A stretch of 64,000 bases of DNA from positions 295,926,001 to 295,990,000 of the forward strand of contig OZ024740.1 in NCBI GenBank assembly GCA_964016885.1, written 5' to 3'. The position numbers were made by a program, and so were the translations under genes. The notes beneath the pieces are model-generated. The model was not told the DNA's origin and ran no database searches. It saw nothing but the letters and a program-made list of their open reading frames with translations. Shown here piece after piece: positions 1 through 36,400 of this stretch. Within the stretch, counting starts at the first letter, position 1. Each line of letters starts with the position of its first letter. Source of the DNA: Eledone cirrhosa (Eukaryota).

Positions 1-3000
1 TTATATAGACAGTGAGTGTACCTAAGAATATATTATATAGACAGTGAATGTATCCAAGAATATATTATATAGACAGTGAGTGTACATAAGAATATATTAT
101 ATAGACAGTGAGTGTACCTAAGAATATATTATATAGATAGTGAGTGTATCTAAGAATATATTATATAGATAGTGAGTGTATCTAAGAATATATTATATAG
201 ACAGTGAGTGTACCTAAGAATATATTATATAGACAGTGAGTGTACCTAAGAATATATTATATAGACAGTGAGTGTACCTAAGAATATATTATATATACAG
301 TGAGTGTACCTAGGAATATATTATATAGACAGTGAGTGTACCTAAGCATATATTATATAGACAGTGAGTGTACCTAAGATTATATTATATAGACAGTGAG
401 TGTAACTAAGAATATATTATATAGACAGTGAGTGTACCCGAGAATATATTATATAGACAGTGATTGTACCTAAGAATATATTATATAGACAGTGAGTGTA
501 CCTAACAATATATTATATAGACAGTGAGTGTACCTAAGAATATATTATATAGAAAGTCAGTGTACCAAACAAAATATTAAATAGACAGTGAGTGTACCTA
601 TGAATATATTATATAGACAGTCAGTGTACTGAGAATATATTATATAGACAGTGAGTGTACCTAAGAATATATTATATAGATAGTGAGTGTATCTAAGAAT
701 ATATTATATAGATAGTGAGTGTATCTAAGAATATATTATATAGACAGTGAGTGTACCTAAGAATATATTATATAGACAGTGAGTGTACCTAAGAATATAT
801 TATATAGACAGTGATTGTACCTAAGAATATATTATATAGACAGTGAGTGTACCTGAAAATATATATTATATAGACAGTGAGTGTACCTAAGAATATATTA
901 TATAGACAGTGAATGTATCCAAGAATATATTATATAGATAGTGAGTGTATCTGAGAATATATTATATAGACAGTGAGTGTACATAAGAATATATTATATA
1001 GATAGTGAGTGTATCCAAGAATATATTATATAGACAGTGAGTGTACCTGAAAATATATATTATATAGACAGTGAGTGTACCTAAGAATATATTATATAGA
1101 CAGTGAATGTATCAAAGAATATATTATATAGATAGTGAGTGTACCTGAGAATATATTATATAGACAGTAAGTGTACCTAAGAATATATTATATAGACAGG
1201 GAATGTATCCAAGAATATATTATATAGATAGTGAGTGTATCTGAGAATATATTATATAGACAGTGAGTGTACATAAGAATATATTATATAGACAGTGAGC
1301 GTACCTACGAATATATTATATAGATAGTGAGTGTACCTGAGAATATATTATATAGACAGTGAGTGTACCTAAGAATATATTATATAGAGTGTGAGTGTTC
1401 CTAAGAATATATTATATAGACAGTGAGTGTACTGAATATATATTATATAGACAATGAGTGTACCTAAGAATATATTATATAGACAGTGAGTGTACCTAAG
1501 AATATATTATATAGACAGTGAGTGTACCTAAGAATATATTATATAGACAGTGAGTGTACCTAAGAATATATTATATAGACAGTGAGTGTACCTAAGAATA
1601 TATTATATAGACAGTGAGTGTACCTAAGAATATATTATATAGAGTGTGAGTGTTCCTAAGAATATATTATATAGACAGTGAGTGTTCTGAATATATATTA
1701 TATAGACAATGAGTGTACCTAAGAATATATTATATAGACAGTGAGTGTACCTGACAATATATTATATAGACAGTGAGTGTACCTAAGAATATATTATATA
1801 GACAGTGAGTGTACCTAAGAATATATTATATAGACAGTGAGTGTTCCTAAGAATATATTATATAGACAGTGAGTGTACTGAATATATATTATATAGACAA
1901 TGAGTGTACCTAAGAATATATTATATAGACAGAGAGTGTACGTAAGAATATATTATATAGATAGTGAGCGTACCTGAGATTATATTATATAGACAGTGAG
2001 TGTACCTAAGAATATATTATATAGACAGTGAGTGTACCTAATAAAATATTATATAGAGAGTGAGTGTACCTAAGAATATATTACATAGACAGTGAGTGTA
2101 CCTGACAATATATTATATAGATAGTGAGTGTACCTAAGAATATATTATATAGACAGTGAGTGTAACTAATAATATATTATATAGACAGTGATTGTACCTA
2201 AGAATATATTATATAGGCACTGAATGGACCTGAGAACATATTATCTAGACAATAAGTGTACCTAAGGATATATTATATAGAGAGTGAGTGTACTGAGAAT
2301 ATATTATATAGACAGTGAATGTATCCAAGAATATATTATATAGACAGTGAGTGTACCTGAGAATATATTATATAGACAGTGAGTGTACCTAAGAATATAT
2401 TATATAGATAGTGAGTGTATCCAAGAATATATTATATAGACAGTGAGTGTACCTGAAAACATATATTATATAGACAGTGAGTGTACCTAAGAATATATTA
2501 TATAGACAGTGAATGTATCCAAGAATATATTATATAGATAGTGAGTGTATCTGAGAATATATTATATAGACAGTGAGTGTACATAAGAATATATTATATA
2601 GATAGTGAGTGTATCCAAGAATATATTATATAGATAGTGAGTGTATCTGAGAATATATTATATAGACAGTGAGTGTACATAAGAATATATTATATAGACA
2701 GTGAGTGTAACTAAGAATATATTATATAGATATTGAGTGTACCTGAGAATATATTATATAGACAGTGCGTGTACCTAAGCATATATTATATAGACAGGAG
2801 TGTACCTGAGAATATATTATATAGACAGTGAGTGTATCTAAGAATATATTATATAGACAGCAAGTGTACTGAATATATATTATATAGACAATGAGTGTAC
2901 CTAAGAATATATTATATAGACAGTGAGTGTACCTAAGAATATATTATATAGACAGTGAGTTTACTGAATATATATTATATAGACAATGAGTGTACCTAAG

Positions 3001-6000
3001 AATATATTATATAGACAGTGAGTGTACCTAACAATATATTATATAGACAGTGAGTGTACCTAAGAATATATTATATAGACAGTGAGTGTACCTAAGAATA
3101 TATTATATAGACAGAGAGTGTTCCTAAGAATATATTATATAGAAAGTGAGTGTACTGAATATATATTATATAGACAATGAGTGTACCTAAGAATATATTA
3201 TATAGACAGAGAGTGTACCTAACAATATATTATATAGACAGTGAGTGTACCTAAGAATATATTATATAGACATCCAGTGTACTGAATATATATTATATAT
3301 ACAATGAGTGTACCTAAGAATATATTATATAGACAGTGAGTGTACCTGACAATATATTATATAGATAGTGAGTGTACCTAAGAATATATTATATAGACAG
3401 TGAGTGTAACTAATAATATATTATATAGACAGTGATTGTACCTAAGAATATATTATATAGGCACTGAATGGACCTGAGAATATATTATCTAGACAATAAG
3501 TGTACCTAAGGATGTATTATATAGAGAGTGAGTGTACTGAGAATATATTATATAGACAGTGAATGTATCCAAGAATATATTATATAGACAGTGAGTGTAC
3601 CTGAGAATATATTATATAGACAGTGAGTGTACCTAAGAATATATTATATAGATAGTGAGTGTATCCAAGAATATATTATATAGACAGTGAGTGTACCTGA
3701 AAATATATATTATATAAACAGTGAGTGTACCTAAGAATATATTATATAGACAGTGAATGTATCTAAGAATATATTATATAGATAGTGAGTGTATCTGAGA
3801 ATATATTATATAGATAGTGAGTGTACATAAGAATATATTATATAGATAGTGAGTGTATCCAAGAATATATTATATTGACAGTGAGTGTACCTGAGAATAT
3901 ATTATATAGACAGTGAGTGTACCTAAGAATATAATATATAGACAGTGAATGTATCCAAGAATATATTATATAGATAGTGAGTGCATCTGAGAATATATTA
4001 TATAGACAGTGAGTGTACATAAGAATATTTTATATAGACAGTGAGTGTACCTAAGAATATATTATATAGATAGTGAGTGTATCTAAGAATATATTATATA
4101 GATAGTGAGTGTATCTAAGAATATATTATATAGACAGTGAGTGTACCTAAGAATATATTATATAGACAGTGAGTGTACCTAAGAATATATTATATAGACA
4201 GTGAGTGTACCTAAGAATATATTATATAGACAGTGAGTGTACCTAGGACTATATTATATAGACAGTGAGTGTACCTAAGCATATATTATATAGACAGTGA
4301 GTGTACCTAAGATTATATTATATAGACAGTGAGTGTAACTAAGAATATATTATATAGACAGTGAGTGTACCCGAGAATATATTATATAGACAGTGATTGT
4401 ACCTAAGAATATATTATATAGACAATGAGTGTACCTAACAATATATTATATAGACAGTGAGTGTACCTAAGAATATATTATATAGAAAGTGAGTGTACCA
4501 AACAATATATTATATAGACAGTGAGTGTACATATGAATATATTATATAGACAGTGAGTGTACCTAAGAATATATTATATAGAGAGTGAGTGTACCTAAGA
4601 ATATATTATATAGACAGTGAGTGTACCTAAGAATATATTATATAGACAGTGATTGTACCGAAGAATATATTATATAGGCACTGACTGGACCTGAGAATAT
4701 AATATAGAGACACTAAGTGTACCTAAGAATATATTATATAGAGAGTGAGTGTACTGAGAATATATTATATAGACAGTGAGTGTACTGAGAATATATTATA
4801 TAGACAGTGAGTGTACCTAAGAATATATTATATAGAGAGTGAGTGTACCCGAGAATATATTATATAGACAGTGAGTGTACCTAAGAATATGTTATATAGA
4901 CAGTGAGTGTACCTAAGAATATATTATATAGACAGTGAGTGTACCTAAGAATATATTATATAGACAATGAGTGTACCTAAGAATATATTATATAGAGATT
5001 GAGTGTATCTAAGAATATATTATATAGACAGTGAGTGTACCTAAGAATATATTATATAGACAGTGAGTGTACCTGAGAATATATTATATAGACAGTGAGT
5101 GTACCTAAGGATATATTATATAGATAGTGAGTGTACCTGAGAATATATTATATAGACAGTGAGTGTTCCTAAGAATATATTATATAGACAGCAAGTGTAC
5201 TGAATATATATTATATAGACAATGAGTGTACCTAAGAATATATTATATAGACAGTGAGTGTACCTAACAATATATTATATAGACAGTGAGTGTATCTCAG
5301 AATATATTATATAGACAGCCAGTGTACTGAATATATATTATATATACAATGAGTGTACCTAAGAATATATTATAGAGACAGTGAGTGTACTGAGAATATA
5401 TTATATAGACAGTGAATGTATCTATGAATATATTATATAGACAGTGAGTGTACCTGAGAATATATTATATAGACGGTGAGTGTACCTAAGAATATATTAT
5501 ATAGATAGTGAGTGTATCCAAGAATATATTATATAGACAGTGAGTGTACCTGAAAATATATATTATATAGACAGTGAGTGTACCTAAGAATATATTATAT
5601 AGACAGTGAATGTATCCAAGAATATATTATATAGATAGTGAGTGTATCTGAGAATATATTATATAGACAGTGAGTGTACATAAGAATATATTATATAGAT
5701 AGTGAGTGTATCCAAGAATAAATTATATAGACAGTGAGTGTACCTGAGAATATATTATAAAGACAGTGAGTGTACCTAAGAATATATTATATAGACAGCA
5801 AGTGTACTGAATATATATTATATAGACAATGAGTGTACCTAAGAATATATTATATAGACAGTGAGTGTACCTAAGAATATATTATATAGACAGTGAGTGT
5901 ACCTAAGAATATATTATATAGACAGTGAGTGTACCTAAGAATATATTATATAGATAGTGAGTGTACCTGAGAATATATTATATAGGCAGTGAGTGTACCT

Positions 6001-27000: not shown

Positions 27001-29947
27001 CATATAGACAGTGAATGTACCTAACAATATATTATATAGACAGTGAGTGTACTGAGAGTATATTATATAGACAGTGAGTGTACTGAGAATATATTATATA
27101 GACAGTGAGTGTACCTAAGAATATATTATATAGACAGTGAGTGTACCTAAGAATATATTATATAGACAGTGAGTGTACCTAAGAATATATTATATAGACA
27201 GTGAGTGTACCTAACAATATATAATATAGACAGTTAGTGTTCATAAGAATATATTATATAGATAGTGAGTGTACCTAAGAATATTTTATATCGACAGTGA
27301 GTGTACCTAATAATATATTATATAGACAGTGAATGTATCTAACAATATATTATATAGACAGTGAGTGTAATGAGAATATATTATATAGACAGTGAGTGTA
27401 CCTAAGAATATATTATATAGACAGTGAGTGTACCTAAGAATATATTATATAGACAGTGAGTGTACCTAAGAATATATTATATAGACAGTCAGTGTACCTA
27501 AGAATATATTATATAGACAGTGAATGTACCTAAGAATATATTATATAGATAGTGAGTGTACCTCAGAATATATAATATAGACAGTGAGTGTACCTAAGAA
27601 TATATTATATAGACAGCGAGTGTACCTAAGAATATATTATATAGACAGTGAGTGTACCTGAGAATATATTATATAGACAGTGGGTGTACCTAAGAATATA
27701 TTATATAGACAGTGAGTGTACCTAAGAATATATTATATAGACAGTGAGTGTACCAAATAATATATTATATAGACAGTGAGTGTATCTAAGAATATATTAT
27801 ATAGACAGTGAGTGTACCTAAGAATATATTATATAGATAGTGAGTGTACCTAAGAATATATTATATAGATAGTGAGTGTACCTAAGAATATATTATATAG
27901 ACAGTGAGTGTATCTAAGAATATATTATATAGACAGTGAGTGTACCTAAGCATATATTATATAGACAGGAGTGTACCTGAGAATATATTATATAGACAGT
28001 GAGTGTATCTAAGATCTAAGAATATATTATATAGACAGTGAGTGTACCTAAGAATATATTATATAGACAGTGAGTGTACCTAAGAATATATTATATAGAC
28101 AGTGAGTGTACCTAAGAATATATTATATAGACAGTGAGTGTACCTAAGAATATATTATATAGACAGTGAGTGTACCTAAGAATATATTATATAGACAGCG
28201 AGTGTACCTAAAATATATTATATAGACAGTGAGTGTACATAAGAATATATTATATAGACAGTGACTGTACCTAACAATATATTATATAGATAGTGAATGT
28301 ACCTAACATTATATTATATAGACAGTGAGTGTACCTGAGAATATATTATATAGACAGTTAATGTATCTAACAATATATTATATAGACAGTGAGTGTACTG
28401 AGAATATATTATATAGACAGTGAGTGTAATGAGAATATATTATATAGACAGTGAATGTATCTGACAATATATTATATAGACAGTGAGTGTACTGAGAGTA
28501 TATTATATAGACAGTGAGTGTACTGAGAATATATTATATAGACAGTGAGTGTACCTAAGAATATATTACATAGACAGTGAGTGTACCTAAGAATATATTA
28601 TATAGACAGTGAGTGTACCTAAGAATATATTATATAGACAGTGAGTGTACTGAGAATATATTATATAGACAGTGAGTGTACCTAAGAATATATTATATAG
28701 ACAGTGAGTGTACCTAAGAATATATTATATAGACAGTGAGTGTACCTGAGAATATACTATATAGACAGTGAGTGTACCTAAGAATATATTATATAGACAG
28801 TGAGTGTACCTTAGAATATATTATATAGACAGTGAGTGTACCTTAGAATATATTATATAGACAGTGAGTGTACCAAATAATATATTATATAGACAGTGAG
28901 TGTACCTAAGAATATATTATATAGATAGTGAATGTATCTAAGAATATATTATATAGACAGTGAGTGTATCTAAGAATATATTATATGGACAGCGAGTGTA
29001 CCTAAGAATATATTATATAGATAGTGAGTGTACCTAAGAATATATTATATAGACAGTGAGTGTACCTAAGCATATATTATATAGACAGGAGTGTACCTGA
29101 GAATATATTATATAGACAGTGAGTGTATCTAAGATCTAAGAATATATTATATAGACAGTGAGTTTACTGAGAATATATTATATAGACAGCCAGTGTACCT
29201 AAGCATATATTATATAGACAGTGAGTGTACCCGAGAATATATATAGACAGTGAGTGTACCTAAGAATATATTATATAGACAGTGAGTGTATCTAAGAATA
29301 TATTATATAGACAGTGAGTGTACATAAGAATATATTATATAGACAGTGAGTGTACCTAAGAATATATTATATAGACAGTGCGTGTACCTAACAATATATT
29401 ATATAGACAGTGAGTGTACCTAAGAATATATTATATAGACAGTGAGTGTACCTAAGAATATATTATATAGACAGTGAGTGTACCTAAGAATATATTATAT
29501 AGGTAGTGAGTGTACCTAAGAATATATTATATAGACAGTGAATGTACCTAAGAATATATTATATAGATAGTGAGTGTACCTCAGAATATATTATATAGAC
29601 AGTGAGTGTATCTAAGAATATATTATATAGACAGTGAGTGTACCTAAGAATATATTATATAGACAGTGACTGTACCTAAGAATATATTATATAGACAGTG
29701 AGTGTACCTAAGAATATATTATATAGACAGTGAATGTACCTAAGATTATATTATATAGACAGTGACTGTACCTAAGAATATATTATATAGACAGTGAGTG
29801 TACCTAAGATTATATTATATAGACAGTGACTGTACCTAAGAATATATTATATAGACAGTGAGTGTACCTAAGAATATATTACATAGACAGTGAGTGTACC
29901 TAAGAATATATTATATAGACAGTGAATGTATCTAACAATATATTATA
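1..29947 (+). repeat. 32-bp AT-rich tandem satellite array, left block (roughly 930-940 monomers; continues beyond window start)
   Basis: TTATATAGACAGTGAGTGTACCTAAGAATATA repeats head to tail with a 32-bp period (same phase at positions 1 and 481 = 15 x 32). Most monomers differ by 0-3 substitutions, with recurrent length variants (31, 33, 29 and 39 bp). No spacers and no inversions seen. Confidence 0.99.
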
Positions 29948-30159
29948 CTAGACATGAAAAATGCGCAAGCTCAAAAGTGCCACAGAATGTTATAATAAAC
30001 CTTCAAAAGTGTGGGACTAGAGTTGTTGCTAAAAAATATTGTAATCATTATATATCGTACATTCTGTGGCATCCTTTATAAAAATAGCTTAAACTAACGA
30101 AGCCTTTATTTTTACGCTATTTCACTTAGTTAATTCTTAGAGTGTAACATATAAAAATA
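29948..30159. repeat. Left arm of a 212-bp inverted repeat (outer CTAG terminus of the insertion)
   Basis: Reverse complement of 30691-30902. One mismatch seen (AAACTAACG vs AAACCAACG). Confidence 0.97.
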
Positions 30160-30197
30160 TGATTTACAACTATAAAATAAATTAATTAATATAATAA

Positions 30198-30285
30198 CAG
30201 AGCTGCGGAGCTGAAATTTAGGAAATAATGGAGTATCGGATCCTGAGTTGGAGCCAGTCAATTTTTGACCGACTCCGCAGCCCTG
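30198..30285. mobile_element. 88-bp hAT-like MITE remnant
   Basis: 13-bp TIRs CAGAGCTGCGGAG (30198-30210) and CTCCGCAGCCCTG (30273-30285) match 12/13. Flanking 8-mers TATAATAA (30190-30197) and TATAATAC (30286-30293) match 7/8. CAG...CTG ends with an 8-bp TSD are typical of hAT elements. Confidence 0.72.
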
Positions 30286-30690
30286 TATAATACATTTCAT
30301 ATTAAAGTTATTAATAAACCTATTTTACACTTCATGCAAATTACCACGAGATATTGATATTAGATATAAGATACAGCGCAATATCTACAGCTGTAAAAGT
30401 ACGAAAGCGAAGTAATAATAAGTGGCTTAAGGTAATTCCAATATGAAAGTTTGTAGTGATAAAAATTTGATAATGCAATACGATTGTTAATATTATAGTT
30501 CTATGAAAATGTAACAATAGATAACTAAATTATTTTACTATTAGTATATTTAAGAAATTATCATTATAGATTTGATCGTTCATATAAGCATCATATTAAG
30601 TTTCAACACAATTATTTTGTTACTATGAGTATATGATAATAATATTACGTAATTATTTATAGCTGTTATTACATTAAACATAGATGTATT

Positions 30691-30902
30691 TATTTTTATA
30701 TGTTACACTCTAAGAATTAACTAAGTGAAATAGCGTAAAAATAAAGGCTTCGTTGGTTTAAGCTATTTTTATAAAGGATGCCACAGAATGTACGATATAT
30801 AATGATTACAATATTTTTTAGCAACAACTCTAGTCCCACACTTTTGAAGGTTTATTATAACATTCTGTGGCACTTTTGAGCTTGCGCATTTTTCATGTCT
30901 AG
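30691..30902. repeat. Right arm of the 212-bp inverted repeat (internal inverted copy ending ...CATGTCTAG followed by T)
   Basis: TATTTTTATATGTTACACTC...GCGCATTTTTCATGTCTAG is the reverse complement of 29948-30159. The spacer is 531 bp (30160-30690). Confidence 0.97.
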
Positions 30903-31057
30903 TTTAATATTTTTTTAAGGCAACGCTTGTAATAACTCTAGTTAAACAGGATATATATTAATAATAAATTATCGTTGTAATGTAATTAGATTATGTAATT
31001 GTTATTATAAATTATCTTATAAATATTAGTGTAAGATGTATAAAAATATTTTCAGAC

Positions 31058-31096
31058 TTTTAATATAAACAACTACAAAAAACAATCAATATTAAA
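31058..31096 (+). repeat. 39-bp dispersed direct repeat, copy 1
   Basis: TTTTAATATAAACAACTACAAAAAACAATCAATATTAAA matches 32136-32174 at 38/39. Confidence 0.9.
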
Positions 31097-31460
31097 TCAA
31101 TATATTATACATAATAGAAAACATAAAATATACAATACAAAAACAAAATATTTACATACATTTGCAATTATCAGTGTATATACATTTTCTTTATATTCCC
31201 TGAGCAAATTAATAAGATTTGTTTTTATTGTACATAATTTGATGACTTGTTGGAGTGTATTAAAAGATAGCAACAATTTGTGATTAAATTGTTATCTTAA
31301 GCAACTCACTTTTTAATAGTTGTTGGCTGAGCGAAATTGTAAAAGCCTATGAGCAAATATAAAAAAAAATACACAAACAACATTTCCTTGTGTTATTACA
31401 ACATTAGATAAAATAATTGAGCAATGTCGTTATATTTTGCTCTTATTGCACATTAATAGT

Positions 31461-31635
31461 GTTTCTATTTTTCGGCACAAATCCATTACGGCAGTCCATT
31501 ACTGGTACTTTATTTTATCGAATTAGTAAGTATGAAAGTCGAAGTTAACCTCGGCAGGATTTGAACTTAGAATGCAAAGGACCATAACAATACTGCAAAG
31601 CATGGTGTATGACGCTCTACCAATACTTGTGTTGA
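31461..31635 (-). mobile_element. Diverged tRNA-derived SINE copy (resembles octopus SINE families, from memory)
   Basis: The minus strand has a tRNA-like A-box region TTGGTAGAGCG (~31613-31623), a B-box GTTCAAATCC (31557-31566), then GAGGTTAACTTCGACTTTCAT...TCGATAAAATAAAGTACCAGT. The last part is shared with a second copy at 32425-32470. Outer boundaries are approximate. Confidence 0.7.
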
Positions 31636-32020
31636 GCTGGTCATTAATTTATGGTGGTCGTGCGTGAAGTAGAGCAATCGCTAGTTGAAATATTATGAAC
31701 AAAACATTTTTATTTGCCGAAGAACATATTTTCAATACTGTTTGTGAATGTGACGAAGGAAATACATTCTGATATGGAACAGTGTACAAAGTGTGTCTGT
31801 GAATAACATAATGTTACCTCATGTTGTTGTCAAGACATAATGGATTTCGTTTATCCAGTTAGAAGATGAAACCTAGCCATCTCGGATTAGTTATATTTCA
31901 TGCCATGTGTAAACGTGTTTGAGGATAGCAAAATATGCGCGTTAATTATAATAATTAGTTAATAATATTACAAAATATACCTAATTAAACTCTTTGCTTG
32001 AAATTTTATCATTCTTCGTT

Positions 32021-32056
<36 letters not shown>
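32021..32056 (+). repeat. Compound microsatellite (TA)10(GA)8
   Basis: Read directly from the sequence. Confidence 0.97.
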
Positions 32057-32135
32057 CATTTATCTAGTCCTTCGCTCAAGATTAATCTATAAGTTTAGAT
32101 GTTTGCCTTCGTTTAAGTAAATATTACAGTAAGAT

Positions 32136-32174
32136 TTTTAATATAAACAACTACAAAAAACAATTAATATTAAA
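32136..32174 (+). repeat. 39-bp dispersed direct repeat, copy 2
   Basis: TTTTAATATAAACAACTACAAAAAACAATTAATATTAAA, offset 1,078 bp from copy 1. Confidence 0.9.
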
Positions 32175-32424
32175 ACGAAAAAATTATCAATGATAAAAGA
32201 AGCGGATGCAACTTTTTTTTTTATAAAGTTATATTCCTGTTTCTTTAAAGAACATTTCATTTTTGTTCTATTGTAGGCGAAATAATGCAATGGTTTAATA
32301 GGGAAGATATAACTTACGAATTATGTCTCTAACCGTGTAACGCTTTTTAAGTAGATAACTACAATTGAAAATACTAAAGAAATGGAACCAACAATTCAAT
32401 TTGAAAGTCGTCTAGTGACAGTGT

Positions 32425-32470
32425 ATTACTGGTACTTTATTTTATCGACCCCGTAACGATGAAAGGCAAA
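32425..32470 (-). mobile_element. Second, truncated fragment of the same SINE (central domain only)
   Basis: ATTACTGGTACTTTATTTTATCGA is identical to 31498-31521 and is followed by CCCCGTAACGATGAAAGGCAAA. The Pol III box region is missing. Confidence 0.7.
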
Positions 32471-32498
32471 AATGCAAATGCTTAAAATTTAAATTGCC

Positions 32499-32604
32499 TT
32501 AATTCTATCGTCTGCTGTTTCATTAAAGGGAGATTATCGTCTGTATTTAATTCTATCGTCTACTGTTCCACTAAACAGATATACCTCCACTATCGTCTCT
32601 ATTT
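32499..32604 (+). repeat. Imperfect tandem duplication of about 50 bp containing four TATCGTCT motifs
   Basis: TTAATTCTATCGTCTGCTGTTTCATTAAA...TATCGTCTGTATTT is followed by AATTCTATCGTCTACTGTTCCACTAAA...TATCGTCTCTATTT. Confidence 0.8.
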
Positions 32605-32831
32605 ATACATTTTAACTTATAACTTATACACATTTGATTTGAAATATTTTATCTAGTCCCCCCTCTCAATATTATGATGATTTCTTTCGAATGAAACAGT
32701 TCTAGTCCTGTAGAAGCCATTTATATATATAATTGAACTGAGTTAAAAATTCACAATATTTATAATTAAATAAGCTCATATATATATGTGTGTATTTATC
32801 TGTTTATTGTATTATATATAATGTGTGTATA

Positions 32832-32870
32832 TACAGGATGTCCCCCAAAAATATATACACACTTCAACAG
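32832..32870 (+). mobile_element. Possible solitary Tc1/mariner-like terminal repeat
   Basis: TA followed by CAGGATGTCCCCCAAAAATATATACACACTT resembles the TA|CAGGGTGTCCC...AAA starts of Tc1/mariner-superfamily TIRs. It sits in a TA-rich tract. No partner end found. Confidence 0.4.
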
Positions 32871-32968
32871 CATTCTAATAACTATTGCCTGTACAGGTAA
32901 TCAAAGTGTCAATCGAATGTTAGTTTCGTGTTTTAACAGTACAAATTTACAATACACACATAAAACCA

Positions 32969-33018
32969 GTGTATATACATACATGAATGTGTATACACAT
33001 ACATGAATGTGTATATAC
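32969..33018 (+). repeat. 20-bp minisatellite, 2.5 copies, within a TA/CA low-complexity tract
   Basis: GTGTATATACATACATGAAT GTGTATACACATACATGAAT GTGTATATAC. Confidence 0.9.
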
Positions 33019-33084
33019 AATATATATGTATATATATATAGACACATATATTCACGGTGCAACGGTACATTAAAATATAGATGC

Positions 33085-33320
33085 GGGAGAGGGGGGTGTA
33101 TATATAGGGGCGCTGGGGATAAAGGAGTGTAAAGCGTGTGTAATTGATATATTGAAGGAGAGGAGCGTGCAGCGATAGAGTAACAAATATATAGAGAGGG
33201 GGGAGAGATGGTATTGAAGGGGAGGAGTGCAAAGCGAAAGAGTAAGAGATATATATATAGAGACGGAACAGATAGAGAGAAACAGGCGTAAGTAACAGTG
33301 GAAGAGATATAGAGAGAGGT
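33085..33320 (+). repeat. Purine-rich region with degenerate tandem units of about 60 bp
   Basis: TATTGAAGGAGAGGAGCGTGCAGCGATAGAGTAA (~33150) and TATTGAAGGGGAGGAGTGCAAAGCGAAAGAGTAA (~33212), plus a partial AAGGAGTGTAAAGCG (~33122). Strong G/A strand bias. Confidence 0.7.
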
Positions 33321-33408
33321 ACTCTGATTGGTTGAAAATTAGCCAATGACATACGATCACCACCACCACGGCTATCCCCGAAACATTTTTAAAGAAGCTA
33401 GGCATATA

Positions 33409-33462
33409 TGTTAGAACACGAAAAGTGAACATTCTGTGTTTCACACTTTTCGTGTTCTAACA
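33409..33462. other. Terminal hairpin: perfect 19-bp stem and 16-nt loop, 2 nt from the TC end of the insertion
   Basis: TGTTAGAACACGAAAAGTG (33409-33427) pairs with CACTTTTCGTGTTCTAACA (33444-33462). Confidence 0.95.
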
Positions 33463-33464
33463 GA

Positions 33465-36400
33465 TAGACAGTGAGTGTACTGAGAATATATTATATAGAC
33501 AGTGAGTGTAATGAGAATATTTCATATAGACAGTGAATGTACCTAACAATATATTATATAGACAGTGAGTGTACTGAGAGTATATTATATAGACAGTGAG
33601 TGTACTGAGAATATATTATATAGACAGTGAGTGTACCTAAGAATATATTATATAGACAGTGAGTGTATCTAAGATCTAAGAATATATTATATAGACAGTG
33701 AGTGTACCTAAGAATATATTATATAGACAGTGAGTGTACCTAAGAATATATTATATAGACAGTGAGTGTACCTAAGAATATATTATATAGACAGTGAGTG
33801 TACCTAAGAATATATTATATAGACAGTGAGTGTACCTAAGAATATATTATATAGACAGCGAGTGTACCTAAAATATATTATATAGACAGTGAGTGTACAT
33901 AAGAATATATTATATAGACAGTGACTGTACCTACCAATATATTATATAGATAGTGAATGTACCTAACAATATATTATATAGACAGTGAGTGTACCTAAGA
34001 ATATATTATATAGACAGTTAATGTATCTAACAATATATTATATAGACAGTGAGTGTACTGAGAATATATTATATAGACAGTGAGTGTAATGAGAATATAT
34101 TATATAGACAGTGAATGTATCTAACAATATATTATATAGACAGTGAGTGTACTGAGAGTATATTATATAGACAGTGAGTGTACTGAGAATATATTATATA
34201 GACAGTGAGTGTACCTAAGAATATATTACATAGACAGTGAGTGTACCTAAGAATATATTATATAGACAGTGAGTGTACCTAAGAATATATTATATAGACA
34301 GTGAGTGTACTGAGAATATATTATATAGAGAGTGAGTGTACCTAAGAATATATTATATAGACAGTGAGTGTACCTAAGAATATATTATATAGACAGTGAG
34401 AGTACCTGAGAATATACTATATAGACAGTGAGTGTACCTAAGAATATATTATAGAGACAGTGAGTGTACCTTAGAATATATTATATAGACAGTGAGTGTA
34501 CCTTAGAATATATTATATAGACAGTGAGTGTACCAAATAATATATTATATAGACAGTGAGTCTACCTAAGAATATATTATATAGATAGTGAGTGTATCTA
34601 AGAATATATTATATAGACAGTGAGTGTATCTAAGAATATATTATATGGACAGTGAGTGTACCTAAGAATATATTATATAGATAGTAAGTGTACCTAAGAA
34701 TATATTATATAGACAGTGAGTGTACCTAAGCATATATTATATAGACAGGAGTGTACCTGAGAATATATTATATAGACAGTGAGTGTATCTAAGATCTAAG
34801 TATATATTATATAGACAGTGAGTTTACTGAGAATATATTATATAGACAGCCAGTGTACCTAAGCATATATTATATAGACAGTGAGTGTACCCGAGAATAT
34901 ATATAGACAGTGAGTGTACCTAAGAATATATTATATAGACAGTGAGTGTATCTAAGAATATATTATATAGACAGTGAGTGTACATAAGAATATATTATAT
35001 AGACAGTGAGTGTACCTAAGATATATTATATAGACAGTGAGTGTACCTAACAATATATTATATAGACAGTGAGTGTACCTAAGAATATATTATATAGACA
35101 GTGAGTGTACCTAAGAATATATTATATAGACAGTGAGTGTACCTAAGAATATATTATATAGGTAGTGAGTGTACCTAAGAATATATTATATAGACAGTGA
35201 ATGTACCTATGAATATATTATATAGATAGTGAGTGTACCTCAGAATATATTATATAGACAGTGAGTGTATCTAAGAATATATTATATAGACAGTGAGTGT
35301 ACCTATGAATATATTATATAGACAGTGACTGTACCTAAGAATATATTATATAGACAGTGAGTGTACCTAAGAATATATTATATAGACAGTGAATGTACCT
35401 AAGATTATATTATATAGACAGTGACTGTACCTAAGAATATATTATATAGACAGTGAGTGTACCTAAGATTATATTATATAGACAGTGACTGTACCTAAGA
35501 ATATATTATATAGACAGTGAGTGTACCTAAGAATATATTACATAGACAGTGAGTGTACCTAAGAATATATTATATAGACAGTGAATGTATCTAACAATAT
35601 ATTATATAGACAGTGAGTGTACTGAGAATATATTATATAGACAGTGAGTGTAATGAGAATATTTCATATAGACAGTGAATGTACCTAACAATATATTATA
35701 TAGACAGTGAGTGTACTGAGAGTATATTATATAGACAGTGAGTGTACTGAGAATATATTATATAGACAGTGAGTGTACCTAAGTATATATTATATAGACA
35801 GTGAGTGTATCTAAGATCTAAGAATATATTATATAGACAGTGAGTGTACCTAAGAATATATTATATAGACAGTGAGTGTACCTAAGAATATATTATATAG
35901 ACAGTGAGTGTACCTAAGAATATATTATATAGACAGTGAGTGTACCTAAGAATATATTATATAGACAGCGAGTGTACCTAAAACATATTATATAGACAGT
36001 GAGTGTACATAAGAATATATTATATAGACAGTGACTGTACCTACCAATATATTATATAGATAGTGAATGTACCTAACAATATATTATATAGACAGTGAGT
36101 GTACCTAAGAATATATTATATAGACAGTTAATGTATCTAACAATATATTATATAGACAGTGAGTGTACTGAGAATATATTATATAGACAGTGAGTGTAAT
36201 GAGAATATATTATATAGACAGTGAATGTATCTAACAATATATTATATAGACAGTGAGTGTACTGAGAGTATATTATATAGACAGAGAGTGTACTGAGAAT
36301 ATATTATATAGACAGTGAGTGTACCTAAGAATATATTACATAGACAGTGAGTGTACCTAAGAATATATTATATAGACAGTGAGTGTACCTAAGAATATAT

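Follow-up and report, generated by a model that had tools for sequence, protein, structure and literature searches.

A copy of a very young, probable Helitron family within a satellite array of Eledone cirrhosa

Introduction

Canonical Helitrons, as characterized in PMC6544945 and PMC5148889, begin with 5'-TC, end with 3'-CTRR, carry a palindrome of 16-20 bp located 10-12 nucleotides (nt) before the 3' end, and insert between A and T (A|T) without target duplication. In the bat Helitron reconstruction described in PMC6544945, altering or deleting the 3' hairpin barely affected activity; because of this result, the 3' palindrome is taken here as a usual but not an essential feature. An element of this general kind interrupts a satellite array in Eledone cirrhosa (GenBank assembly GCA_964016885.1, contig OZ024740.1, forward-strand positions 295,926,001 to 295,990,000); the whole 64-kb stretch is referred to below as the window, and positions without a contig prefix are positions within it. 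The 3,517-bp insert at 29948..33464 (minus strand) very probably belongs to a very young Helitron family, of which it is a copy without proteins of its own, likely pasted into the satellite by a Rep/Hel enzyme that a partner element supplied in trans. It belongs to an ordinary kind of element that is unusual in its hairpin-forming ends.

The family can be compared with three groups of described eukaryotic elements. With the canonical non-autonomous Helitron1 elements of insects (Hel1/Lep1), as described in PMC6544945, it shares the 5'-TC and 3'-CTAG (CTRR) ends, precise insertion at A|T without target duplication, the absence of coding capacity, a large number of copies, and a mosaic body made up of captured or nested DNA; it differs from them in that its 3' end is not preceded, at 10-12 nt, by a palindrome of 16-20 bp, and in having a 955-nt foldback that extends to the final base and a 5' hairpin at nt 3-56. 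The Helitron2 elements FoHeli1 and FoHeli2 of Fusarium oxysporum, in the account given in PMC5148889, have in common with it a 5'-terminal hairpin, duplicated 5' ends in some copies, and composite forms explicable by opposite-orientation self-insertion; their targets are TNAT|A or TTTT|T and their 3' end is ATTTT, in contrast to A|T and CTAG here. Finally, Helentron-associated elements (HINEs, DINE-1) resemble the family in that they are non-autonomous, belong to the rolling-circle elements, and contain subterminal structure as well as microsatellites; according to PMC5148889, however, Helentrons and HINEs insert in TT, whereas this family inserts in A|T.

The Insertion Site and Its Empty Counterpart

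A single 32-bp satellite array makes up the window (Tandem Repeats Finder: period 32, 2,004 copies, 1-64000), and a word-frequency scan found one interruption, at approximately 29921-33481, as the sole non-satellite stretch in the 64 kb. At the filled site, the sequence is ...TATTATA|CTAGACATG...TTCTAACAGA|TAGACAGTG, and the insert spans 29948-33464; on the minus strand, which is the strand of the element, it reads A|TCTGTTAG...CATGTCTAG|T, with the 5' TC at 33464 and the 3' CTAG at 29948. The host base abutting the 3' CTAG (29947) is A on the plus strand, and T after the element on its own strand; the host base abutting the 5' TC (33465) is T on the plus strand, and A before the element on its own strand. 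Positions 29947 and 33464 are both A, which leaves a 1-bp ambiguity: a cut at 29947-33463, giving T|...|A, is equally valid for this copy. Preference is given to the cut A|TC...CTAG|T, the reading shared by 64 of 64 copies elsewhere.

Excision of 29948-33464 rebuilds the 32-bp monomer exactly, and a paralogous empty site, TATTATA|TAGACAGTG, lies at 35606..35607, exactly 2,142 bp past 33464/33465 and one satellite block downstream. The register of the blocks is given by the marker ATCTAAGATCTAAG at 28007, 29127, 33667, 34787, and 35809, with spacings of 1120 + 1023 bp (after subtraction of the 3,517 bp) followed by 1120 + 1022 bp. The intact duplicate of the interrupted block occupies 33667..35808 on the plus strand, and its counterpart consists of 28007-29947 plus 33465-33666 (2,143 bp); a gapped alignment of the restored block with 33667-35808 yields 2,126 matches, 16 mismatches, and one gap column (99.3%), and the two blocks are completely identical over 99 bp on either side of the insertion site. 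The neighbouring satellite blocks before and after are 93.3% and 94.9% alike, no more.

An earlier note on this stretch, made from its letters alone, had described a non-autonomous Helitron-type insertion with TC...CTAG ends on the minus strand, and its local observations hold: the monomer is restored to the base with nothing duplicated or lost, the uninterrupted homologous site is found at 35606/35607, the reading A|TC...CTAG|T is supported by the copies elsewhere in spite of the 1-bp ambiguity, and the spacings of 2,143 versus 2,142 bp are correct, the markers at 29127 and 34787 having been left out of that comparison. Since one block is filled and the other empty, without a means of precise loss, the insertion most likely postdates the local 2.14-kb block duplication, as the same note had proposed.

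Distribution of the satellite and of the element was also compared in Logan contigs of several coded sequencing runs, all of them low-depth contigs. The element is nearly unchanged in runs X1, X3, and X5, where its unique parts have contig depths of approximately 12-25, 800-1,150, and 3,600-3,900, respectively; the satellite bin 29800-29926 has a depth of 73,980 in X5 (organism E), but 9.5 in X3 (organism C) and 14.8 in X1 (organism A). The satellite thus appears to be abundant under one organism label only, whereas the element is common to all three runs; expansion of the satellite seems much more narrowly confined than the element is.

Copies, Boundaries, and Target Preference

The genome searched comprises 2,995,841,428 bases in 1,796 contigs, with the window at C1:295926001-295990000. 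When the insert was used as query, 38 of the best 40 among 3,155 first-look candidates, distributed over many contigs and including the window copy, covered nt 1-3517 (one of them 1-3516) at 99-100% identity, so that 37 other full-length copies are present among these best 40. Boundaries were surveyed in 64 copies from 62 loci, chosen by best score (30), by an exact 5'-end 29-mer (20), or by end words 5-6.4 kb apart (12). The first and last 12 nt are common to all 30 best-score loci, except that locus L029 ends in CTAT; the 20 loci chosen by the 29-mer all belong to the same family as the insert, with lengths of 3.2-3.9 kb, and all 12 long loci hold members of this family enlarged by additional DNA inside.

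All 64 copies start with TCTGTTAGAAC... and are preceded by A; 62 are followed by T, and 62 end in ...GTCTAG, the other two in CTAT. The site is TA|TA in 56 of the 64, with a strong preference for the inside of (TA)n tracts, and target-site duplications were found in none. Eight copies inspected for their TA-poorer flanks are likewise free of duplication, as are flanks beyond (TA)n tracts such as ...GTTGTA|TTTAAA..., ...TTCCTA|TTCAAC..., and ...CCTTGA|TAAAAG.... Both ends co-occur 3.2-6.4 kb apart in every copy examined, and the insert is accordingly not a product of chance. The earlier note had named other boundaries, target duplications, or ends that never recur together as observations that would speak against a Helitron; instead, TC after A and CTAG before T recur from copy to copy, duplications are seen neither in the non-repetitive flanks nor at the empty site of the window, and the two ends are found together throughout the genome.

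On contig C1 below 182 Mb, 45 of 50 exact 5' words pair with a 3' word at a distance of 3.2-6.4 kb; 28 pairs are spaced at 3.2-4.0 kb and 17 at 4.95-6.4 kb, and one 3' end serves two 5' words. Two 5' ends without a 3' partner are truncated copies of the family; one odd end-pattern match was rejected as a chance match. Some copies have a duplicated 5' end, in which the first 53 nt (77 or 57 in other copies) are followed directly by a complete element; the joint is again A|TC and falls within the right arm of the 5' hairpin. Examples are L077 (C2:117536419/117536472), C1:1309112/1309189, C3:290883847/290883904, and C3:312483809/312483862. Multiple 5' termini of a similar kind are described for Fusarium Helitrons in PMC5148889.

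Copy Number and Age

The exact 5' 21-mer occurs 669 times in the genome and the exact 3' 23-mer 1,357 times, with no occurrence of either reversed control. Since every copy contains its 3' end two times, the 3' word is about twice as frequent as the 5' word; the number of family members with exact end words is accordingly at least about 670. Over the 3' 1,996 bp, 60 copies differ from the family majority by a median of 0.15% (maximum 0.85%), and their mean pairwise difference is 0.34%, figures that are biased low by a sample picked by best score or exact end words. The window copy has 6 differences in 1,996 from the majority, and 2 in 1,996 from its nearest copies. By the measure of these divergences the family is very young and the insertion in the window is recent; the recent insertion claimed in the earlier note is thereby upheld, alongside the 16 differences in 2,142 between the satellite blocks.

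A SINE-like insertion (short interspersed element) of approximately 186 bp, with a 15-bp target duplication, is located at element nt 1193 in 13 of the 20 copies chosen by the exact 29-mer; carriers include L063, L065, L069, L070, L072, and L074. Its presence in 13 of 20 copies implies that a SINE-hit copy became a source, and that the family kept amplifying afterwards.

Internal Content and the Long Form

The insert has no coding capacity: its longest stop-to-stop frame has 151 amino acids, and none of the 12 longest frames reaches the Pfam cut-off, in agreement with the non-autonomous status assigned by the earlier note. No tRNA gene was found in the insert, and an Rfam scan gave nothing at gathering level, only sub-threshold microRNA-like matches on hairpins and simple repeats. 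A SINE-like, tRNA-derived-looking fragment lies at 31460..31627 (minus strand, element nt 1838-2005), with many dispersed matches of 74-83% at unrelated loci; a second short piece is found at 32419-32470. Contig depth is very high at 31451-31577 and 32340-32466, the SINE-like regions.

The insert also contains a (TC)n(TA)n tract, and next to it a deletion joint at 31943..31978 (minus strand), between element nt 1487 and 1522, where approximately 2.1 kb are absent. The missing DNA is present in the copies of 5.2-6.4 kb, which in 12 of 12 cases carry about 2.1 kb extra between these two positions; it includes a frame of 159 amino acids, a SINE copy, and the 3' part of a LINE (long interspersed element), none of which encodes Rep/Hel. 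One long copy contains a nested reverse-transcriptase frame. As the extra DNA of the long form encodes no Rep/Hel, the window copy derives from a form that was already non-autonomous; it is a deletion derivative of an element of approximately 5.7 kb that itself has no Rep/Hel. Longer copies, among which the earlier note had suggested looking for Rep/Hel, thus exist in the form of this 5.7-kb element, but without these genes.

The frame of 159 amino acids (L084:2186-2662) contains basic repeats of approximately 23 amino acids (KQAKYR...-like). In a genome search with this frame, all 150 scored matches, the best 150 of 843 candidates, were the family itself at 97-100% identity; the frame is open in 145 of them, as expected at low divergence. 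Pfam gave no match to it, and among 320 candidates in a large protein collection no longer relative was found. Possibly the frame is what remains of a parental Rep/Hel's repeat-rich N-terminus, a suggestion that is unproven.

Terminal Structures and Sibling Families

The 5' hairpin at 33409..33462 (minus strand, element nt 3-56) has a stem of approximately 19 bp, an inner stem of 4 bp, and a loop containing CACAGAATGT; folded as DNA, it has a free energy (dG) of -21.9 kcal/mol and a z-score of -9.4, matched by none of 200 shuffles. No significant hairpin was found in the last 80 nt (z -0.55, 52 of 200 shuffles as good). Instead, the 3' end is built as a long foldback (29948-30902, 955 nt). Its outer arm at 29948..30159 (minus strand) comprises the last 212 nt of the element and ends in CTAG, and its inner arm at 30691..30902 (minus strand) is an inverted copy of these 212 nt; the arms are complementary at 211 of 212 positions, or at 98% in an inverted-repeat scan in which the arms extend into the flank. 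The spacer of 531 nt at 30160..30690 (minus strand) has a hairpin of its own, with a stem of approximately 14 bp (GCTGCGGAG...CTCCGCAGC). The whole 955-nt unit folds with the final nucleotide inside the stem. The word CACAGAATGT of the 5' loop recurs twice in each 3' arm.

The reversed inner arm reads ...CATGTCTAG followed by T, and thus resembles a genuine 3' end (...GTCTAG, then T); this likeness suggests that the foldback could have arisen when a copy inserted in opposite orientation. Opposite-orientation self-insertion is proposed for composite elements in PMC5148889.

The same architecture is found in a sibling family of approximately 1.2 kb, for which 30 loci out of 480 pattern matches were read; the element is preceded by A in 29 of the 30 loci, and GTCTAG|T is found in most of those with a detectable 3' end. 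The sequence of the 5' stem differs among the family, its 1.2-kb sibling, and a third type, yet all three fold (z-score of -9.4 for the family, and -4.2 and -5.9 for the two sibling end types). The 3' arms of the two families are alike over the last 135 nt or so only, and each family prolongs the arms with its own sequence. Conservation of the 5' hairpin across types is suggestive but unproven; with no compensatory pairs in the covariation analysis (see below), the case for it is founded on three end types that fold separately.

Between the two termini, likeness is slight. When the first 30 nt are compared in inverted orientation with the 3' end, the best match is 16 of 21, a marginal value that was reached by 24 of 500 shuffles and may be due to chance; by this match, which lies between 33439-33464 and 29948-29968, the right arm of the 5' hairpin slightly resembles a 3' terminus. 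No pair joining both termini occurs among the 25 longest inverted repeats listed in the insert. A literature search for Helitrons with a long 3' foldback, or with a 5' hairpin combined with canonical ends, returned Helitron2 cases only, a result that does not show their absence from print.

Rep/Hel Genes in the Genome

Candidate source enzymes are present in the genome. With the domain Helitron_like_N (PF14214), all 150 scored matches, the best 150 of 3,704 candidates, exceeded the cut-off, and many frames are open over 600-1,700 amino acids. An uninterrupted frame of 1,718 amino acids (L043:6147 to L044:1300; C2:315.526-315.531 Mb) contains, in this order, STPR-type repeats (11 Pfam STPR stretches), Rep (PF14214), and a PIF1 helicase (PF05970) with a 2B domain; its relatives are 97-99% alike. 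Loci with Rep were examined in 10 cases with long open frames (20 kb each) and in 20 more (10 kb each), representing four or five families. In two autonomous families, the 3' end consists of a short hairpin, approximately 6-10 nt, and then CTAG|T; one of them starts A|TCTATATATA..., and the 5' start of the other falls within (TA)n and is not placeable. The word CACAGAATGT was found in these 400 kb only in sibling non-autonomous copies beside two loci, and in two single matches. An active Rep/Hel enzyme in this genome is plausible because uninterrupted Rep/Hel frames exist.

Two further arrangements were seen at the Rep loci. At C4:22.2 Mb (L046/L045; AU02 coordinates ~5454 and ~12932), autonomous Helitrons are arranged head to tail, with the 3'-terminal CTAG of one copy immediately before the TC of the next, and a 1.2-kb sibling non-autonomous copy is located 2.5 kb downstream of them. 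Elsewhere, Rep-domain matches occur by the dozen, nearly identical to one another, all with one and the same open frame of 362 amino acids and spaced approximately 70-170 kb apart on one strand; these clusters (G000: C20 3.5-5.2 Mb, C27 13.0-15.5 Mb, C19 35.4-39.9 Mb, and C16 0.54-0.80 Mb) have the appearance of large tandem or segmental duplications, each of them with a Helitron fragment inside.

Transposition Model and Points Against It

Following the established Helitron mechanism, Rep would nick the top strand at A|TC, and a PIF1-type helicase would peel this strand in 5' to 3' direction as far as the CTAG end; the peeled single strand would be circularized and then pasted at A|T where TA-rich DNA melts easily. 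The satellite monomer would offer such an A|T target at its most TA-rich spot (TATTATA|TAG). More speculatively, the cis signals might be single-strand structures, namely the 5' hairpin beginning at nt 3 and the foldback with its 212-bp stem, which, being based on the last nucleotide, would occupy the place of the usual short hairpin 10-12 nt before CTRR. Bacterial insertion sequences of the IS200/IS605 group have HUH transposases that read hairpins at both ends. In this speculative version, the common feature would be a pair of single-strand hairpins that define the element; hosts and enzymes are unrelated, and the likeness is one of mechanism only, with no sign of relationship. That the family is a currently transposing lineage whose ends are set by single-strand structures at both termini, instead of by the canonical short 3' hairpin, and are read by a Rep/Hel so far unlinked to it, is the most far-reaching reading and a rather improbable one.

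Several observations weigh against the interpretation of the insert as a trans-mobilized copy of a young Helitron family. The canonical short 3' hairpin is absent from the element's 3' end. None of the 30 Rep loci carries TCTGTTAGA upstream or matches the element outside dispersed repeats; since no Rep/Hel-coding element with the ends of the family was found among these loci, mobilization in trans is inferred only. The earlier suggestion that an active or recently active Rep/Hel partner may exist is consequently borne out as far as the long open Rep/Hel frames go, but not by the ends, since 0 of 30 Rep loci carry those of the family. The selection of copies by score or exact words that lowers the divergence figures bears on the young age of the family. 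As for the 5' hairpin, a consensus fold of 26 distinct 5' ends (RNAalifold, on a MAFFT alignment that is not structure-aware) gave 13 pairs with no compensatory change. Finally, no contig in the coded runs spans either junction of the insert; at 29947/29948, none of the listed contigs bridges the joint, as one begins at 29947 and another continues into unlike sequence. Support for the junctions thus comes from the assembly and from the monomer, which is restored exactly.

Classification and Alternative Explanations

The characters of the termini are those of a Helitron1 in the TC start (64/64), the CTRR end (62/64), the A|T target without duplication, and the lack of terminal inverted repeats; the short palindrome 10-12 nt before the 3' end is the one Helitron1 character of the termini that is not seen. 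Assignment to a Helitron2- or Helentron-type element, a branch that departs from the canonical plan in its asymmetric terminal inverted repeats and in having a hairpin at either end, would account for the 5' hairpin, which is described for FoHeli1/2 in PMC5148889 and is present here too, and might draw on the weak inverted likeness of the first 30 nt to the 3' end mentioned above. Of the two terminal hairpins of Helitron2, the 5' one is present here, and at the 3' end there is the long foldback alone. This assignment is very improbable: an inverted 5' terminus 20-40 nt before the 3' end, the asymmetric repeat of Helitron2, was not found, the best match being terminal and marginal, and in the sibling type the inverted likeness is weaker still; the ends are TC and CTAG; and the target is A|T (62-64 of 64 copies), mostly TA|TA, rather than the TTTT|T/C, TNAT|A, or TT sites given in PMC5148889. 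In addition, those autonomous Helitrons of this genome whose ends were read are canonical.

The foldback invites another explanation, in which a foldback or MITE-like unit (miniature inverted-repeat transposable element) at 29948-30902 came to lie by chance beside unrelated DNA, so that TC...CTAG is a coincidence. Its arms are complementary at all but one position, both outer edges of the 955-bp unit are CTAG adjoining A or T, and the element is visibly a patchwork with SINE and LINE fragments; all 64 copies, however, are co-terminal across the whole 3.2-6.4 kb, and a foldback unit standing by itself was not observed. On C1, three foldback pairs have no exact 5' word nearby; in the one that was fetched, homology enters the body of the element, and the other two lie approximately 2.7 kb from matches to the 159-amino-acid frame of the long form. 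A chance composite is therefore rated even less probable than a Helitron2. Less credible again is an assembly artefact, in which a repeat copy was wrongly joined into the array: satellite arrays are hard to assemble, and the coded runs supplied no junction-spanning contig, but a false join is not expected to restore the 32-bp monomer, to keep the 2,142-bp register, and to obey the A|T rule. A cut-and-paste transposon that duplicates a TA target would explain the TA|TA flanks of 56 among 64 copies; it is refuted by the empty site, which keeps both TAs (TATTATA|TAGACAG), and conflicts with flanks such as ...GTA|TTT..., ...CTA|TTC..., and ...TGA|TAA..., which show no duplication, and with the lack of terminal inverted repeats beyond the marginal likeness of the ends. 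It is the least probable of the alternatives. The classification as a protein-less Helitron copy is retained with high confidence.

Significance

What is new here is the extreme youth and size of the family, together with the hairpin-forming structure of both of its ends. For the satellite, the insertion provides a relative date, most likely later than the duplication of the 2.14-kb block, and a unique landmark within an otherwise uniform array. Natural Helitron families that are still moving are, to our knowledge, rarely in hand; this family is a good candidate, since its copies number at least about 670 and diverge from one another by a few tenths of a percent, with several size variants that each kept amplifying and with open Rep/Hel frames in the same genome. 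That terminal bases and a target of the canonical type occur here together with a 5' hairpin and a very long 3' foldback bears on the question of which cis features Rep/Hel needs. If the lineage were indeed transposing at present, with ends defined by structure, it would offer a natural system in which Helitron transposition could be watched and the recognition of ends by the enzyme could be tested.

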